From Escherichia phage BEK2-2, in the sequence record MN158213.1: 44,021 nucleotides of DNA; one strand, written 5' to 3'. Positions within the stretch are counted from its first letter, which is position 1, and the number at the start of each line of letters is the position of its first letter. Under the pieces are notes generated by a model. It searched no databases. It saw only the letters and a program-made list of their open reading frames with translations, and was not told the origin of the DNA. A program made the translations under genes and the position numbers. Of this stretch, positions 4,512 through 28,094 are shown one piece after another.

Positions 4512-5252
4512 ATGTTAACGAAAAAGGTTAAAAGCGATATCGCCGCGCACGTTGCGGCGTGTCTGCCGGAAGAAGCCTGCGGCCTGGTGGTCATGGTGGG
4601 TCGTAAGCAAGTGTTCGTCCCATGTCTGAACGTATTTGAAGACCCGACCGGCGTGCGCTCACGCAAAGACGCGTTTACTATTAGTGATATGGCCTGGATG
4701 GATGCCGAGGATATGGGCGACGTCGTGCGCGTAGTCCACTCGCATCCGGGCCAGCGCGAGCTTACCCCATCACTGGGAGACGTTAACGGATGCAACGGCA
4801 GCGGCGTAGTCTGGACCATCACTAACGAATATGGCGACTTTATCGAGATCGACCCTGAAGACCCGCCGCTGGTAGGCCGCCGATTTGTTCTCGGAATTAC
4901 GGATTGTTACGGCCTCGTCATGGACTGGCACAAAAAGCAGGGCGTAAACCTGCCAGACTTCCGCGTGCCGTATAACTGGTGGGAGACAGGTGAAAACCTG
5001 TATATGGACAATTGGTACGGTGCGGGCTTCAGGGAATGCGAGGAGAATACGCCGGGGGCGATGGTTATCATGCAGATTAGCGCGCCAGTACCTAACCATG
5101 CTGGGATATTCCTTCCGGGCAACCAACTACTACACCACATCTACGGCAGTCTGTCGAGCGTAGTCCCTTTCCGGGCAGGATTTTTCCGCGACAATGTGGT
5201 TAAATGGGTCCGTCATAAAGACCTACCGGGGGATATCACAGAATGGCAATGA
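4512..5252 (+). CDS. Tail assembly protein K-like (JAB/MPN plus NlpC/P60-like domains)
   Basis: JAMM-like motif VVHSHPG plus a Cys/His-containing C-terminal half; size and position match lambda gpK. Confidence 0.75.
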   Translation: MLTKKVKSDIAAHVAACLPEEACGLVVMVGRKQVFVPCLNVFEDPTGVRSRKDAFTISDMAWMDAEDMGDVVRVVHSHPGQRELTPSLGDVNGCNGSGVVWTITNEYGDFIEIDPEDPPLVGRRFVLGITDCYGLVMDWHKKQGVNLPDFRVPYNWWETGENLYMDNWYGAGFRECEENTPGAMVIMQISAPVPNHAGIFLPGNQLLHHIYGSLSSVVPFRAGFFRDNVVKWVRHKDLPGDITEWQ

Positions 5253-5860
5253 CAACGTTTAAATTGTACGGCGTTTTGGGGCGTCGATTCGGTAAAGTTC
5301 ATAAGCTGGACTGCTTCACTCCGGGCGAGGGTATTACCGGCCTGTGCGTGAAGTTACCCGGCTTACAGGACTTTCTAATGTCAGCCCACCTGGACAATAT
5401 GATGTTCAAGGTGCGCAAAGGCGACCACACGATGACCGGCTATGATGAGCTGGGTGAGTTCCACGGCAACCGCGTCGTCACCATCGCGCCGGTTATGACT
5501 GGCGCAAAAAGAGGGTTGGGACAATTGCTGGCGGGTGTCGCGATCGTAGTGGCGTCGTTCTATACGGGCGGACTTGCTACTGCTGCTTTCGGGGCTTCGG
5601 CTGCAACCGCTGCCGCTATCGGGACGGCGACGTTTTCGTTCGGGATGTCGATGGCGCTGGGTGGCGTTATGCAATTGCTATCTCCGCAACCGAAAGGATT
5701 GCAGACACGGCAGGATGTGGATAACAAGGCGTCGTATGCGTTCGGCGGCCCAGTAAACACTACCGCGCAAGGCACGGCTCTTGGTGTATTATGGGGCGAG
5801 CGTGAGATCGGCGGCGCTATTATTTCAGCCGGAATCGTAACCGAGGACTTGAACGAATGA
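5243..5860 (+). CDS. Tail assembly protein I-like
   Basis: 205 aa with Gly/Ala-rich hydrophobic C-terminal half; lies between K-like and J-like genes. Confidence 0.65.
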   Translation: MAMTTFKLYGVLGRRFGKVHKLDCFTPGEGITGLCVKLPGLQDFLMSAHLDNMMFKVRKGDHTMTGYDELGEFHGNRVVTIAPVMTGAKRGLGQLLAGVAIVVASFYTGGLATAAFGASAATAAAIGTATFSFGMSMALGGVMQLLSPQPKGLQTRQDVDNKASYAFGGPVNTTAQGTALGVLWGEREIGGAIISAGIVTEDLNE

Positions 5861-8800
5861 CGATTATCTACGACGTCACAGGGCATAAAGGCGGCGGCGG
5901 AAAACAGCACACCCCACAGGAGACGCCAGATAGCCTGCATTCGCTGGCTAAAATCCGCATCTTGCTTGCGCTGGGGGAAGGGGAATTCGAAAGTATTACC
6001 AGCGCCAGCGAATTGCGGCAGCGTGTTTACCTGGATGGAACGCCGATCCAGAACGCTGACTTGTCCGAAAACTTCCCTGGCGCGCGTGTGGAGTTCCGCC
6101 CCGGCACACAGCACCAGGATGTGATCCACGGATTTTCAGCGGTGGAAAGTGAGCAATCTGTCGGCGTAAAACTGGAAAACGGTACGCCGTGGGTACGCCA
6201 GATTAACGATACCAGTCTGGACGCCGTTCGCATTCGCATCGGAATTCCGGCCCTGTACACTAACGAAGATAATGGCGACCTGGTTGGCGGACGCATTGAC
6301 TATAAGATCGTTGTGTATACGGATAACGCCGACCCGCGTGAGTTCAGATTCGCCGCCGTTGGTAAAACAATGTCGCTGTATGAGCGCGACCACCGCATCG
6401 AATTACCGCCGAACGTGAATACCGGCTGGCGCGTGGAGGTGCACCGCATAACGGCAGACTCCACATCGGCGAAAGTGGTTAATGATATCCGGGTGCAGTC
6501 CATCACTGAGATTATTGACGCCCGCCTGCGTTACCCGCTAACCGCGCTGTTGTTTGTGGAGTTCGACGCCAAAGCGTTCCAGAACATCCCGCGCGTGTCC
6601 ATCAAGTGCAAAGGTCGCAAAGTTCTAATACCGAACAACTACGACCCGATCAATCATACCTATTCCGGGGACTGGGACGGCACGTTTAAACGCGCATGGA
6701 CTGATAACCCTGCGTGGCACTGGTACGATATTTGTATTACTGAGCGCTTCGGCCTCGGTCGGCGTATCAAACCGCAAATGCTAAACCGATACGCGCTCTA
6801 CCAGATTGCGCAGCGCTGCGATCAGTTGGTCAGCGACGGCAACGGTGGTAGAGAAATCCGCTTTAAGAATGATATGTACATTCAGTCACAGACGGATGCC
6901 TGGACCGTGCTTAAGGATTTAGCCGCCATCTTCGCCGGAATGACCTGGTGGGGCAACCAGATGTTGAATATCGTCAGTGACCAACCGGTCGCAGCAGTGT
7001 CGCACACTATCACCAACGCCTCGGTAATTGATGGGCGATTCGACTACGCATCTGGTAGCCAGAAAACGCGCTATTCCACATTCGCGGTAGCATACGGCAA
7101 TCCGAAAAACCACTATGAAGATGCTATCGCAACGGGGCAACGTGTCGAACTGGTACGCCGCCATAAGATTAACCGTCTTGATATTACGGCGATCGGCTGT
7201 ACGCGCGAGTCAGAAGCGCAACGCCGGGGGCACTGGGCGCTAATCTCAAACCAGCTTGACCAGCAAGTTAGTTTTAAGGTGGGCATGGAGGGGCTATTCT
7301 TTATTCCTGGTAGCGTAGTAGCGATCGCGGATACTAATATTTCTGGCGGATTCGAGACTCGCGGCGGTCGCCTGTTGTCAGACCCTGGCACGCGTACCGT
7401 GCTGAACACGGACTGCGAAATCACGTTCCGCCCTGGCGATAAGTTCCTGGTGCGTACAGATAGCGGAAATGTGGAGACTCGCGAGATCGCCAACGTCAAC
7501 GGCAACAAGGTCACGCTAAAAACCGCACTGGATGCCGACCCGATTCCAGACCAGCCGTTTTGCGTTGATGGTGACGATATCCAGTTGCAGAAGTTCCGCA
7601 TAACCGACCTGGAATATGATGACTCTACCAGCACTTTCTCGGTGCGCGGGATTGAATACAACGATAGCAAATATGATGCCGTTGATAATGGCGCGCGCCT
7701 AGACCCGGGCATCTTTACGCAAGTGCCGGACGGTGTAATGAAGGGGCCGGAATCCGTGACTATAACTCCGTCGCAGATTTCATCGCAAGGCCAGCTAATC
7801 ACCAACGTGGATATTGTATTCCCTCCGGTGAAAGATGCCGTGGTGTATGAAATCCAGTGGAGGCGTACTAGCCTGCAGAATATGGAAATCCAGTGGGGTA
7901 ACGACTGGGTGAATATCCCGCGCACGGCGTCGAATGGGGCGCACATCCCCAACGTGTTCTCCGGTAACTATCAGGCACGCGTCCGCGCGATCGGTATGGG
8001 TGAAATCTCGTCCCCGTGGGTGTCGTCCCCCATCACGCCGATCGAAGGTCGCCTCGGTGGGCTTAATGCGCCAATCATCACCAACGCGATTTCAGGTTTG
8101 CACCAGATCCTATGGAAGTGGAACCACAACAACGCCGCGACTGATATCTCTTACACCGAGCTTGAAGTGCGCAAGACGGGCGAAACGGAATGGAAATTCC
8201 TGTCCAACGTCCCATACCCTGGGGCGGAGTATGCGCAAACGTCGCTGGAGTTCGGAATTTACCAGCAGTTGCGCGCCCGTGTAGCGGATAAAATCGGCAA
8301 CCTGTCGGACTGGTCGGCCCCGTTTGAAGGGCAGGTGAGTGACAAAGTTGACGAGTATATGAAGGGGTTGGACAACGAGTTTTTGACTTCCGAGGACGGT
8401 AAACGCTTCCAGGAAGCAATCGACACGGTCCCGCAGGGTATTTACGAGGCAATGCTCACCGACGCGCAGCAGTTGTTTAACGCCCGTGCCGAGTACAAAG
8501 GGATTTACGCAGAAATCAAGGTGGCTTATAACGTAGCCGCGGATGCCCACAAGGCCGTAGCGCAACTGGAGACGTTGATCGGCACGCGCCTCGACGATGC
8601 GGAAGCGGCGATCCACACGTTGCAGACAGCGCAAAGCACCCACGAACAAGCGTTCGCCCAGTACCAACAAACGGTTGCCGCTAAGTTTGGGGAACAGGAA
8701 GCCGCCATCCAGCAGGTACAAACGGCAACGGCAGACGTAGCGGGCGCGCTGGCGGAGTACAAGACCCAGGTGGCGGCACAGTTCGGTCAGCAGTCTGCAG

Positions 8801-9279
8801 CTATTGAGCAGAAGATGACGTCCACGTTTAACCATGCCGGTGGCAACGCCACATACAGCCTTAAGGCGGGCGTGACGTATAACGGGACTTACTATGATGC
8901 TGGTATGCAGCTTTCCGTCGTGGCGGAAGGCGGCGCGGTTAAATCCCGCATCGCATTCAAAGCGGACCAGTTCTACATCATGCACCCATCTAACGGGTCG
9001 CTTTCGTCCGCGTTTATCGTAGACGGCGGCGCGGTGTATATTGACACGGCGCGCATCAAGGACGCGACTATTAACTTCGCGCAGATCACGGACACGCTGC
9101 AATCGAGTAACTACGACGGCATCACTCGCGGATGGCGCTTAGGGAAAGATGGAACGTTCATCAACCTGGGCACAGGTAGCGGTGGCGGGGCGATGAAAAT
9201 GACGAATGATACAATCAGCGTCAAGGATTCGAACGGAGTTTTGCGAGTTCAGCTTGGTAAAATCACTGGCAGTTGGTAG
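5857..9279 (+). CDS. Host specificity protein J-like central tail fibre / tip attachment protein
   Basis: 1140 aa, follows I-like gene; size and position match the lambda J family. Confidence 0.85.
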   Translation: MTIIYDVTGHKGGGGKQHTPQETPDSLHSLAKIRILLALGEGEFESITSASELRQRVYLDGTPIQNADLSENFPGARVEFRPGTQHQDVIHGFSAVESEQSVGVKLENGTPWVRQINDTSLDAVRIRIGIPALYTNEDNGDLVGGRIDYKIVVYTDNADPREFRFAAVGKTMSLYERDHRIELPPNVNTGWRVEVHRITADSTSAKVVNDIRVQSITEIIDARLRYPLTALLFVEFDAKAFQNIPRVSIKCKGRKVLIPNNYDPINHTYSGDWDGTFKRAWTDNPAWHWYDICITERFGLGRRIKPQMLNRYALYQIAQRCDQLVSDGNGGREIRFKNDMYIQSQTDAWTVLKDLAAIFAGMTWWGNQMLNIVSDQPVAAVSHTITNASVIDGRFDYASGSQKTRYSTFAVAYGNPKNHYEDAIATGQRVELVRRHKINRLDITAIGCTRESEAQRRGHWALISNQLDQQVSFKVGMEGLFFIPGSVVAIADTNISGGFETRGGRLLSDPGTRTVLNTDCEITFRPGDKFLVRTDSGNVETREIANVNGNKVTLKTALDADPIPDQPFCVDGDDIQLQKFRITDLEYDDSTSTFSVRGIEYNDSKYDAVDNGARLDPGIFTQVPDGVMKGPESVTITPSQISSQGQLITNVDIVFPPVKDAVVYEIQWRRTSLQNMEIQWGNDWVNIPRTASNGAHIPNVFSGNYQARVRAIGMGEISSPWVSSPITPIEGRLGGLNAPIITNAISGLHQILWKWNHNNAATDISYTELEVRKTGETEWKFLSNVPYPGAEYAQTSLEFGIYQQLRARVADKIGNLSDWSAPFEGQVSDKVDEYMKGLDNEFLTSEDGKRFQEAIDTVPQGIYEAMLTDAQQLFNARAEYKGIYAEIKVAYNVAADAHKAVAQLETLIGTRLDDAEAAIHTLQTAQSTHEQAFAQYQQTVAAKFGEQEAAIQQVQTATADVAGALAEYKTQVAAQFGQQSAAIEQKMTSTFNHAGGNATYSLKAGVTYNGTYYDAGMQLSVVAEGGAVKSRIAFKADQFYIMHPSNGSLSSAFIVDGGAVYIDTARIKDATINFAQITDTLQSSNYDGITRGWRLGKDGTFINLGTGSGGGAMKMTNDTISVKDSNGVLRVQLGKITGSW

Positions 9280-9305
9280 CACAGGGGTCCATACGGACCC
9301 CTCTA

Positions 9306-9920
9306 TCAGTCATATTTAGCGGCATCTATCACAAGTATGGATGATGAGTAATAAACGCCAAGCGGCCCCGGTGTGTGGGCTACTTGCTTAGCTATCGAAT
9401 AAATACTTGTCCCGGATGCGCCGGATTGTGACTCGTAAATAGCGTGCCCACCAATCTGAGGGGCGGGAACCGAGTTTATTGCCGTTTGTTGTGGGGATAC
9501 AGCACATGTATACCCCAAATTAACATCAAAAGACAGACCGTTTATAGGTATTTGGTGGGCCTCCAACGGCAACATTTTCCCGTGGTACACCATATCACCC
9601 GCAGAATTATAGAATGCGATCCCGTAGTCTCCCGGCGGTGTGACCATGTCACTAAAAGCATAAACCTTAATCCATCCGGGGTTGTCGGTCTTGTCTAGTC
9701 GGAGCGCATGATAACCACCGTTATTTATGTGCGTGAATGCGGTGTACGCGCGCCCGCCCATCCTCACAAAGAAAAAGCACACGCGATCGAATGGTATTGG
9801 AGTTGTAAAAACAGAACCGCTATATACACCCATATCACCGCGACTTATTAAATTAACAGGCGTAAAATCCGGGCTTAACCAAATGGACCCATCAGGCTTT
9901 ACAAGCTGCATTCCGTACAT
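9306..9920 (-). CDS. Hypothetical protein, third gene of a reverse-oriented cassette
   Basis: Start placed at the ATG (MYGMQLVKPDG...) preceded by GGGGG and lying 1 nt downstream of the upstream gene's stop; shares a YG(F/I)A(I/F)..GxD(V/M) motif with the upstream ORF. Confidence 0.5.
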   Translation of the reverse strand: MYGMQLVKPDGSIWLSPDFTPVNLISRGDMGVYSGSVFTTPIPFDRVCFFFVRMGGRAYTAFTHINNGGYHALRLDKTDNPGWIKVYAFSDMVTPPGDYGIAFYNSAGDMVYHGKMLPLEAHQIPINGLSFDVNLGYTCAVSPQQTAINSVPAPQIGGHAIYESQSGASGTSIYSIAKQVAHTPGPLGVYYSSSILVIDAAKYD

Positions 9921-9921
9921 G

Positions 9922-10200
9922 TTACCCCCAATACGTATATATAAACCTGGATTCACCAGCGTTAAAGCCGCTCCAGGAGACAGTGTTGTCGCTTACGGAT
10001 ATTGATGGCGCACCCCACGATGTGCCGTTCCAGGTATGCGTACCAACATAACCGGCCTTTAAACTTTTCCCCGGCGGACGGTTGTGATACGTCTTGCTCC
10101 CGGATGGTTGTGTGAATTTGTCGAGGAAAAAAACCGGCGTTAGCAGGCCGGTTACATCCCGGCCGTGCTCGTCAAAAATCGCGAACCCATAGTTACTCAC
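9922..10200 (-). CDS. Hypothetical protein, second gene of the reverse cassette
   Basis: GTG start preceded by GGAG; start overlaps the stop of the lipoprotein gene, suggesting translational coupling. Confidence 0.45.
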   Translation of the reverse strand: MSNYGFAIFDEHGRDVTGLLTPVFFLDKFTQPSGSKTYHNRPPGKSLKAGYVGTHTWNGTSWGAPSISVSDNTVSWSGFNAGESRFIYTYWG

Positions 10201-10462
10201 TTTTACACTCCACGATTTCGAATTTATCTTCGCGTTGCCATCTGTGAACGAAAGTCACAAATTTCAGCGATGGGGCTACCCGGTATTGTTTTTCGCCAAA
10301 TCTATTTTCACGCACCGCGTTTAGGTTAACAGGGTAGCTATCGTTTACAGGGAATGTTTTAACAACATATTGGCCTACGCAATCGATAGCCTTGTAGTTG
10401 CCGTCTGGCGATGCGGAGCAACCGGATAAAAGAACCGCACAAATCATAATTAAAGTTTTCAT
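10193..10462 (-). CDS. Small lipoprotein (signal peptide plus lipobox LSGC); candidate superinfection-exclusion protein
   Basis: MKTLIMICAVLLSGCSAS N-terminus with strong AGGAG site; reverse-oriented between J and tail fibre genes, as for cor/llp-type genes. Confidence 0.6.
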   Translation of the reverse strand: MKTLIMICAVLLSGCSASPDGNYKAIDCVGQYVVKTFPVNDSYPVNLNAVRENRFGEKQYRVAPSLKFVTFVHRWQREDKFEIVECKSE

Positions 10463-10542
10463 GGTATCATCTCCTATATTTGGTTGAGTTTTAGTATTAC
10501 ACCGCTCGATCAAGAATGCAACCAATTTACGAGGATTTAGCT

Positions 10543-24553: not shown

Positions 24554-24895
24554 GGTATATCTCCGATTGGTTAAGTTTAGGTGTCGGCAGTTAACTTCGT
24601 CGGTGGCCTTAACATATTGCCAGGTTACGCGTTCTCCCGTTCGGGTAGTGGACCTGGTTATATAATCACGGTTGGGAATCCTGACACTTCGATCCGGCCC
24701 CTGCGTTGCCCCTCTCCAGTTTGCGTCCTGCATCCTGTCGACGGAGTGAATGATAGATTGGTTGCAGGATGGGTGTCAACAACTAATTTCAAAAAAAAAG
24801 CGCCGAGGCAAAATGCGACGGCGCTAACCAATAAGAGACAATGAGACGGGAATTATTATTACACGCGTGCGCGCCCGTTTCAATATCCAAAGGAT

Positions 24896-27560: not shown

Positions 27561-27670
27561 ATCCAGCGCGCATTGGTTGCCGATATGGGGATTCCCATAT
27601 CGCTAAAAGGTTAAATCCTGCGCGCATTGGTTGCCATTTTTAGTGTTTTTATCCGGTCGTATTGGTTGCC
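27557..27670. repeat. Direct repeats ttaaatccWgcgcgcattggttgcc (two copies plus a third partial) flanking palindrome gatatggg-N-cccatatc
   Basis: Read directly, immediately after the primase/helicase stop codon. Confidence 0.6.
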
Positions 27671-27721
27671 GTGTAGTGTGAATACAGTGAATAGTTATGC
27701 AATAAAACTGCATAAACCAAA

Positions 27722-27828
27722 CGGGACAGAAAGCGGGACAAACATGGGGCGGGACAAAGCGGGACAGCACCCCCGTCCCGCCCCGGATGGCGCGGCCTGG
27801 CGGGGAGCGGGACAAGCGGGACAAACCC
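27722..27828. repeat. GGGACA iteron-like array, copy B
   Basis: Direct GGGACA units and palindrome GGGACAGCACCCCCGTCCC; homologous to copy A at 147-330. Confidence 0.7.
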
Positions 27829-27882
27829 CAGTCTTTCAGACTAGACGGGGGTCAATGGCCCCCCTCGTCTGAGACTGAATAA
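27829..27882. promoter_or_regulatory. Conserved 54 bp imperfect hairpin element, copy B
   Basis: Identical to 331-384. Confidence 0.6.
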
Positions 27883-28037
27883 AATCCGGAGATTGCAAAA
27901 CACACGGCAGCATGATACGAAGTGCGGTCGTCTACTAACTAGGCAACCAATGCGGGTTGTATTATGCTGAGTGAAAAATGCGGTTTGCAGCCACAGCAGA
28001 TAGCGATCAACTTTTTCATGCGCGTGATTAATATTGG

Positions 28038-28066
28038 TTGCGTCCACCCCGGCACCAGGCTATATT
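28038..28066 (+). promoter_or_regulatory. Putative promoter TTGCGT-N17-TATATT overlapping two ATTGGTTGC motifs
   Basis: Read directly; 28 bp upstream of the 28095 gene. Confidence 0.35.
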
Positions 28067-28094
28067 GGTTGCACACCAACATGAGGACTGAACA

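Follow-up and report, generated by a model that had tools for sequence, protein, structure and literature searches.

A three-gene cassette beside the central tail fibre gene of Escherichia phage BEK2-2 is probably an exchangeable BtuB receptor module

Introduction

What do three genes transcribed against their neighbours do between the two tail fibre genes of a phage? The question is raised by Escherichia phage BEK2-2 (sequence record MN158213.1; 44,021 nucleotides, hereafter the window), a Dhillonvirus in which three tightly packed minus-strand genes, at positions 9306–10462, lie between J, the gene of the central tail fibre, and the lateral tail fibre gene. The first encodes a small lipoprotein, and the other two encode proteins termed here ORF2 and ORF3. 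We propose, with a probability of about 0.78, that the cassette is an exchangeable receptor module for BtuB, the vitamin B12 transporter of E. coli, in which ORF2 and ORF3 form a split receptor-binding protein (RBP) on the tip of J and the lipoprotein blocks BtuB.

The segment downstream of gpJ is known as a locus of allelic cassettes, each comprising an RBP and its cognate exclusion protein, with alleles that correspond to the terminal receptor (PMC8594841). The pattern was confirmed on 255 phages in a 2026 preprint (bioRxiv 10.64898/2026.04.02.716166). The cassette of BEK2-2 has the position that defines this locus in the BASEL phages, directly downstream of the gpJ homologue, where the sequence varies up to the next conserved module. 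Loci of this type have been described before and no current view is overturned here; modestly new are the fold link to an LptD binder, the split, fused and inverted forms of the RBP, and the correlation with the J tip.

Results and discussion

Organisation of the cassette

The cassette and its neighbours comprise the following genes.

10462 (ATG) to 10193 (TAA), minus strand: lipoprotein, 89 aa (mature 75 aa), Cor family
10200 (GTG) to 9922 (TAA), minus strand: ORF2, the 'small' subunit, 92 aa, PHROG 557
9920 (ATG) to 9306 (TGA), minus strand: ORF3, the 'large' subunit, 204 aa, PHROG 425
5857–9279, plus strand: J, with its 3′ end at 9187–9279
10516 (or 10543, as annotated in PTXU06) to 12480, plus strand: lateral tail fibre gene

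The initial annotation had described a reverse-oriented cassette of three translationally coupled genes, and all the sequence features that it gave were found. The start of ORF2 overlaps the end of the lipoprotein gene by 8 nt, and the ORF2 stop and the ORF3 ATG are one base apart (TAAcATG). Translational coupling of the three genes is supported. For ORF3, the list of open reading frames gives an upstream GTG at 9956, whereas every homologue begins with MYGM. A Pfam search returned no match for any of the three proteins. All three match PHROG families, and ORF3 has homologues in 281 phage records (26–96% identity), so we regard the genes as real.

A BtuB allele of the receptor-binding locus

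The same operon (89/91–92/204 aa, convergent with J) is present in KarlJaspers (Bas06) and FritzSarasin (Bas04), the BASEL phages with ORF3 homologues. The terminal receptor of both is BtuB (S5 Table, PMC8594841). ORF2 is 80% identical to its counterpart in Bas06 and 70% to that in Bas04, ORF3 82% and 62%, and the lipoprotein about 75–77% and 52%, with the mature cysteines C28 and C86 conserved. Cassettes of this type share the position after gpJ, the gene order, the orientation and a hairpin between J and the large gene, at identities of 52–96%. Compared with Bas06 and Bas04, the window has a Dhillonvirus backbone (as do PTXU06 and Zar3M) and the Dhillonvirus signal peptide, and its cassette is flanked by the lateral fibre gene, not by recombination genes. 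The FhuA-type locus of jat and the LptD-type locus of Oekolampad are far more distant than the Bas06 and Bas04 loci. PTXU06, the nearest relative of the window, has been described as a BtuB-dependent or BtuB-type Dhillonvirus (PMC10373560, PMC11990801), and Warwickviruses with the same allele have been reported as FhuA-independent. Since Bas04 and Bas06 carry the same operon and PTXU06 is treated as a BtuB phage, we assign the cassette to the BtuB allele of this known kind of locus; judging from these homologies, BtuB is most likely the receptor of BEK2-2.

The boundaries of the cassette are those of an exchanged segment. J matches 157 phage records at 84–94% nucleotide identity, and the whole cassette is found at high identity only in PTXU06 and Zar3M (92.6%). 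The allele is rare in Dhillonvirus (2 phages among about 125 matching records), most members sharing just the start of the fibre gene and the first ~45 nt of the lipoprotein gene. In pairwise comparisons, homology to the FhuA-type jat stops at 9287 and restarts at 10419, the codon of the lipobox Cys, and homology to the LptD-type Oekolampad stops at 9148 and restarts at 10414. The interior, 9187–10384, matches the Drexlerviridae phage KarlJaspers at 76% nucleotide identity, the DNA homology starting at 9187. Because homology to the Dhillonviruses breaks off at these edges and the interior resembles KarlJaspers, the cassette is read as a module that is exchanged horizontally, with joints at the conserved signal peptide and promoter (left) and at the end of J (right).

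10419–10462, minus strand: left recombination joint, signal-peptide codons up to the lipobox Cys, of the Dhillonvirus backbone

Records labelled 'Campylobacter phage' with C. jejuni as host (MG065681, MG065643, MG065648, MG065649, MG065657 and MG065680) also contain a cassette of this type, at 82%, and J, at 94%. Their sequence is that of T1-like or Dhillonvirus phages of E. coli, and they are probably mislabelled or contaminant assemblies.

ORF2 and ORF3 as a probable split receptor-binding protein

ORF2 matches PHROG 557 (E 3.7e-19), and ORF3 matches PHROG 425 over its full length (E 1.3e-47). This pair of families flanks cor in T1, HK022, N15, ES18 and phi80 (PMC13164509). The earlier view that the canonical cor/llp arrangement offers no counterpart of ORF2 and ORF3 is therefore not supported, as they belong to the very pair that accompanies cor in T1, phi80 and N15. 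The annotations of PHROG 557 and PHROG 425 have already misled the interpretation of the cor locus. No signal peptide, lipobox or transmembrane segment was predicted in ORF2 or ORF3.

The AlphaFold2 model of ORF3, built with 28 diverse family members, is an all-beta, two-domain structure (pLDDT 92.2, pTM 0.85), which shares its fold with the experimentally solved RBP of Oekolampad (PDB 9RPT). That RBP binds its receptor as a purified protein, and in its complex the N-terminal end is disordered and tail-proximal. The relation holds at the level of fold, because no significant sequence link connects the two families. PHROG 1265, the Oekolampad RBP family, gave a partial, collinear alignment with residues 82–129 of ORF3 at E 0.012 (0.0012 for the Bas06 protein), phmmer of the Oekolampad RBP against the ORF3 family gave E values of at least 0.015, and searches of PDB sequences with the ORF3 family profile and with a fusion protein found no match. 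By sequence, ORF3 is not a member of the Rtp44/Oekolampad RBP family. A Foldseek search of BFVD located the ORF3 fold in many uncharacterised phage proteins, and proteins of about 95 aa matched one ORF3 domain at borderline scores. ORF2 was modelled as a small six-strand beta protein. In both models, confidence is lowest for the N-terminal hairpins of ORF2 and ORF3 (pLDDT 70–78).

A profile search of 1.84 billion representatives yielded 102 relatives, about ten of which are fusions of 307–325 aa with the ORF3-like part starting near residue 100. The fusion N-termini match PHROG 557 (E 4e-8 for P0068 and 5e-5 for P0094) and the remainder matches PHROG 425. Moreover, the N-termini are collinear with ORF2 and keep G5, the SGS-x-x-Y segment and SGNT-x-x-W. 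Fusions of this kind, 309–325 aa long, are P0057, P0068, P0069, P0076, P0083, P0084, P0086, P0092, P0094 and P0105, and many of them close with an additional conserved tail, ...YDxYYxxALG. As Rosetta-stone evidence, they suggest that the small and the large protein most likely act as one unit. They also place the small module at the N-terminal end, which is the tail-proximal end in the Oekolampad complex.

The pair also occurs without a lipoprotein. In the Stx podophage TL-2011c (NC_019442), an unannotated 92-aa ORF with a TTG start (4717–4995, between gp61 and gp62) is 51% identical to ORF2, and gp62 is 42% identical to ORF3; both genes are on the same strand as the J-like gp61, and no lipoprotein gene accompanies them. 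In the Nonagvirus JenP1 (KP719132, 2217–3115), an inverted small–large pair is convergent with J, and the interval up to the divergent fibre gene is only 153 nt, so that no lipoprotein is encoded here either. Given the missing export signals, the natural fusions and the pairs without lipoprotein in Stx phages and JenP1, ORF2 and ORF3 most likely constitute a split RBP.

ORF2 and ORF3 had also been described as sharing a repeat. The motif is real (NYGFAIFDEHGRDV / DYGIAFYNSAGDMV), has a third copy at the N-terminus of ORF3 (MYGMQLVKPDGSIW), and in both families its glycines rank with the best-conserved residues, but statistics do not establish that ORF2 and the ORF3 domains are homologous. When ORF2 was compared with the ORF3 halves, hhalign aligned only the 14 motif columns (E 0.034, probability 1.5%), and BLASTP gave nothing significant. 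Because nothing beyond this 14-residue motif was aligned, we make no claim of domain homology from sequence; the case is borderline.

The tip of J

The C-terminal tip of J (9187–9279) ends in ...GAMKMTNDTISVKDSNGVLRVQLGKITGSW. A C-terminus of the form ...TISVKDxNGVLRVQxGxITGxW is common to phages with the PHROG 557/425 pair, namely the window, PTXU06, Bas04, Bas06 and jat, and the J-like gp61 of TL-2011c ends in a similar hairpin. The J of Oekolampad, which has the LptD-type RBP, differs over roughly the last 45 residues. We expected a C-terminus unique to the BtuB cassette, but the FhuA-type Dhillonviruses have it too, and only the LptD type deviates. The J C-terminus and the RBP vary together in type, which fits docking between this tip and this RBP type, and we infer that the tip is the docking site of ORF2 and ORF3.

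The hairpin at the J tip (ISVKDSNGVLRVQLG) follows a pattern of alternating hydrophobic residues, D/N, two variable residues, G and a strand. The YG...G hairpins at the start of ORF2, of ORF3 and of the second ORF3 domain (residues 99–113) have the same pattern. It is possible that the N-terminal hairpins pair between subunits.

The lipoprotein

Serine at position +2 of a mature lipoprotein predicts sorting to the outer membrane (the +2 rule). The N-terminus of the BEK2-2 lipoprotein, MKTLIMICAVLLSG↓CSAS, contains a canonical lipobox (LLSG↓C) with Ser at +2, which fits such sorting. The protein has the features of the Cor/Llp type, with a Sec signal peptide, the lipobox and a mature domain of 75 aa, and the signal peptide is identical to those of jat Cor and of the superinfection exclusion (SE) protein of Oekolampad. 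PHROG 1119, 'Cor superinfection exclusion protein', matches residues 1–87 at E 7.6e-7, and matches the orthologous lipoproteins at E 4.3e-11 (Bas06) and 1.1e-7 (Bas04). SE, which the initial annotation had proposed because such lipoproteins beside receptor-binding genes of other siphoviruses mask the receptor, is with the PHROG 1119 match the best reading of this gene.

At equivalent loci, the LptD-type lipoprotein Rtp45 was shown to be an exclusion factor (PMC12685063), and an exclusion role was inferred for the FhuA-type Cor. Llp on FhuA and Rtp45 on LptD are precedents for blocking a receptor from the periplasmic side (PMC9586334, PMC12685063). By analogy, the BEK2-2 lipoprotein most likely blocks BtuB in infected cells.

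Comparison with related systems

The LptD module, known from Oekolampad/Bas18 and Rtp, comprises an RBP of the Rtp44 family and an SE lipoprotein (bas18_0026, Rtp45). In Oekolampad the RBP gene (321 aa, PHROG 1265, PDB 9RPT) immediately follows the SE lipoprotein gene and is transcribed against J, exactly where ORF2 and ORF3 (92 + 204 = 296 aa) are located in the window. The module differs in that it shows no significant sequence similarity to the cassette, its RBP is a single chain, and the J C-terminus is another one. Moreover, it targets LptDE instead of a TonB-dependent transporter, and the mechanism of Rtp45 is a steric clash inside the LptD lumen.

The extended cor cassette (T1, phi80, N15, HK022 and ES18; jat and JLBYU37) shares PHROG 1119, 557 and 425 with the window, has the same J C-terminal tip, and also encodes the small and the large protein as separate genes. 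The arrangement differs. In the canonical order, seen in jat with essentially the same J, J is followed by small and large on its own strand, and cor alone is on the opposite strand (J → small → large ← cor); in the window, both genes of the pair point the other way and form one operon with the lipoprotein gene (J → ← large ← small ← lipoprotein). The FhuA-type small protein is 27% identical to ORF2, the large protein has only end-to-end profile similarity to ORF3, and the similarity of Cor to the lipoprotein extends no further than the signal peptide and the first ~40 residues of the mature protein. The receptor is also different.

The closest sequence relatives outside the BtuB siphoviruses are the pairs of Stx podophages (TL-2011c; the 933W/Sp5 group), which show the same split. 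They differ from the cassette in the shared strand with the tail gene, the podovirus tail, the missing lipoprotein and the reported receptor, BamA. The T5 pair oad (pb5)–llp and the BF23 equivalents for BtuB follow the same logic, with an RBP held non-covalently on the tip of the central fibre and its gene beside that of a small lipoprotein which blocks the same TonB-dependent transporter from the periplasm. However, pb5 is an unrelated, much larger single protein, and its locus is elsewhere in the genome. Neither the ORF3 fold search nor the lipoprotein search gave a sequence or fold match to pb5 or Llp.

Proposed mechanism

In the model that we favour, the three genes would be read from one promoter diverging from the lateral fibre gene, and transcription would end at a hairpin common to the convergent J. 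ORF2 and ORF3 would be soluble, cytoplasmic beta-proteins that assemble onto the C-terminal tip of J. ORF3 would contact the extracellular face of BtuB, and ORF2 would act as the tail-proximal adaptor linking ORF3 to J, like the N-terminal part of the single-chain versions. After export and lipidation, the lipoprotein would reach the inner leaflet of the outer membrane and there most likely bind BtuB from the periplasmic side, so that later phages and progeny released by lysis would be unable to adsorb. The module would move between lineages by recombination at the end of J and at the signal-peptide/promoter segment. The gene structure, homologies, fold match, cassette boundaries and lack of export signals are established here; from the literature we take that Bas04 and Bas06 depend on BtuB and that the proteins at the LptD allele have RBP and exclusion roles.

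Several points weigh against this model. The lipoprotein has no Pfam match, and its family gave no sequence match in the PDB to the solved Llp or Rtp45 structures. BtuB binding in BEK2-2 is derived from homologues, and the assignment of the RBP at the BtuB allele rests on correlation and AlphaFold3 models. The structure search with ORF2 returned no informative match, and the link of ORF2 to the ORF3 domains is non-significant. The putative cassette promoter is weak by consensus and fell below the threshold of a promoter scan, which left it uncalled. A 2026 paper on KanT1 reads the T1 homologues as exclusion-related membrane proteins. Finally, a near-complete deletion set of the Stx2 phage Sp5 identified nine late genes essential for infection of K-12, including the J-like ORF71. 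The genes after ORF71 are apparently not among the nine (a mapping by synteny only), and if so the pair is dispensable there. We must also note that ORF2/ORF3-type proteins are not covered by the virion proteomics of PTXU06 (PMC6563267), nor by the T1 cryo-EM paper (PMC11945409), in which we sought a resolved tail tip.

Alternative explanations

The KanT1 paper's interpretation, which was owed to the association with cor and toward which the initial annotation also leaned, would make ORF2 and ORF3 host-envelope proteins that help the lipoprotein in SE. Their co-transcription with and translational coupling to the lipoprotein gene agree with it. Nevertheless, both proteins lack a signal peptide, lipobox and transmembrane segment, ORF3 has the fold of a solved RBP, and the pair stands without a lipoprotein in Stx phages and JenP1. 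In FhuA-type phages the pair is transcribed with J, not with cor, and the validated Oekolampad RBP is likewise encoded downstream of a lipoprotein; we therefore consider an envelope role improbable. An equally low probability is given to ORF2, ORF3 or both being non-virion assembly chaperones for the J tip or the lateral tail fibre. Small genes beside fibre genes often encode chaperones, ORF2 lacks an informative fold match, and non-essentiality in Sp5 would fit an accessory role. On the other hand, homology to ordinary tail fibre assembly factors, which would have spoken against the original proposal, did not appear, as neither protein gave an assembly-chaperone signal: Pfam and PHROG searches returned no match to tail-fibre assembly families, and no Tfa- or gp38-type profile or fold was found. 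ORF3 matches the fold of a protein that binds its receptor when purified, the alleles track the terminal receptor and not the lateral fibre type across unrelated phages, and the fusions argue that ORF2 stays with ORF3.

It is about as improbable, in our estimate, that both are virion tip proteins with the roles reversed, so that ORF2 contacts BtuB and ORF3 connects to J. In favour of such a reversal, allele specificity is as high for ORF2 (27% identity to the FhuA-type small protein) as for ORF3, and the present data are compatible with either protein touching the receptor. The earlier suggestion of one gene split by a frameshift, whether this reflects an error in sequencing or a pseudogene of recent origin, is the least probable, and we practically discard it. 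It is right in so far as single-chain versions exist (the 307–325-aa fusions and the 321-aa LptD-type RBP) and the two ORFs are one base apart. However, the split, with its own start codon and a Shine–Dalgarno-like G-run, is conserved in PTXU06, Bas06, Bas04, JenP1, jat and TL-2011c (27–96% identity) and so is not a frameshift artefact, and both ORFs are conserved over their full length up to their ends among the homologues.

Transcription signals

Signals that could govern transcription and translation of the cassette were located at its two ends.

10493–10526, minus strand: putative cassette promoter, TTGCAT (10521–10516), 17 nt, TGT-AATACT (10501–10493), read from sequence
10475–10471, minus strand: AGGAG ribosome site upstream of the lipoprotein gene
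9283–9302, no strand assigned: GC-rich hairpin, core GGGGTCC-ATAC-GGACCCC, between the convergent J and ORF3

The −35 element of the putative promoter overlaps the ATTGGTTGCA / TGCAACCAAT motif at 10517–10526, and the motif is thus present in the divergent promoter region, as had been noted before. Within the window TGCAACCAAT is over-represented, with 19 sites at up to one mismatch against 3.2 expected. The 18 further sites include 13700/13712, 15281/15298, 18228/18240, 24757, 27572–28073, 31466 and 39085/39099. Most of the 19 sites are intergenic; they often form direct pairs or a palindrome, and lie inside or beside promoter-like elements, such as TTGACA-N7-motif-N1-TATCAT at 24757. The motif has the appearance of an operator bound by a phage-encoded regulator, or else of a promoter element specific to the phage.

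The hairpin at 9283–9302 has a folding energy of −21.5 kcal/mol on the plus strand and −17.6 kcal/mol on the minus strand (z about −4, equalled by none of the shuffles), and comparable hairpins are found at the same place in Bas06, Bas04 and Bas18. It has no T-run and was not called in a terminator scan. It is likely a two-way transcription stop. We also considered an attenuator between the lipoprotein and RBP genes, as a terminator-like hairpin followed by T7 lies within ORF2 on the minus strand (10153–10132), 40–60 nt past the lipoprotein stop. This candidate was rejected, being unconserved in Bas06, Bas04 and TL-2011c, and the hairpin is probably a by-product of the conserved VTGLLTPVFFLD codons.

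Implications

The FhuA-, BtuB- and LptD-specific binders of small siphoviruses were called 'unrelated' families in 2026. The fold link between ORF3 and the Oekolampad RBP raises the possibility that the 'four unrelated' RBP families of the preprint share an origin. More tentatively, and at odds somewhat below even, these three kinds of binder and the small/large pairs of Stx podophages could all belong to one ancient modular superfamily, built of three beta-modules with a swappable small adaptor. Each module may be opened by a YG-x5-7-G hairpin, and the whole may be encoded as one chain (the LptD type and the 307–325-aa fusions) or split 1+2 (the FhuA and BtuB types). The small module may serve as an adaptor that can be exchanged and that fits onto a matching hairpin of the J C-terminus, and the entire unit may be able to flip its orientation relative to J. 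If true, such a superfamily would provide a rule by which these phages could be re-targeted through the exchange of defined pieces.

For annotation, the 'hypothetical' or 'membrane' proteins of this locus become subunits of a tail-tip receptor-binding protein, and the lipoprotein a Cor-like exclusion protein. The predicted need of BEK2-2 for BtuB helps in choosing phages with non-overlapping resistance routes for cocktails. The fold link, the split and fused forms and the pairing with the J tip suggest how such cassettes are built and exchanged, which bears on the engineering of receptor specificity.

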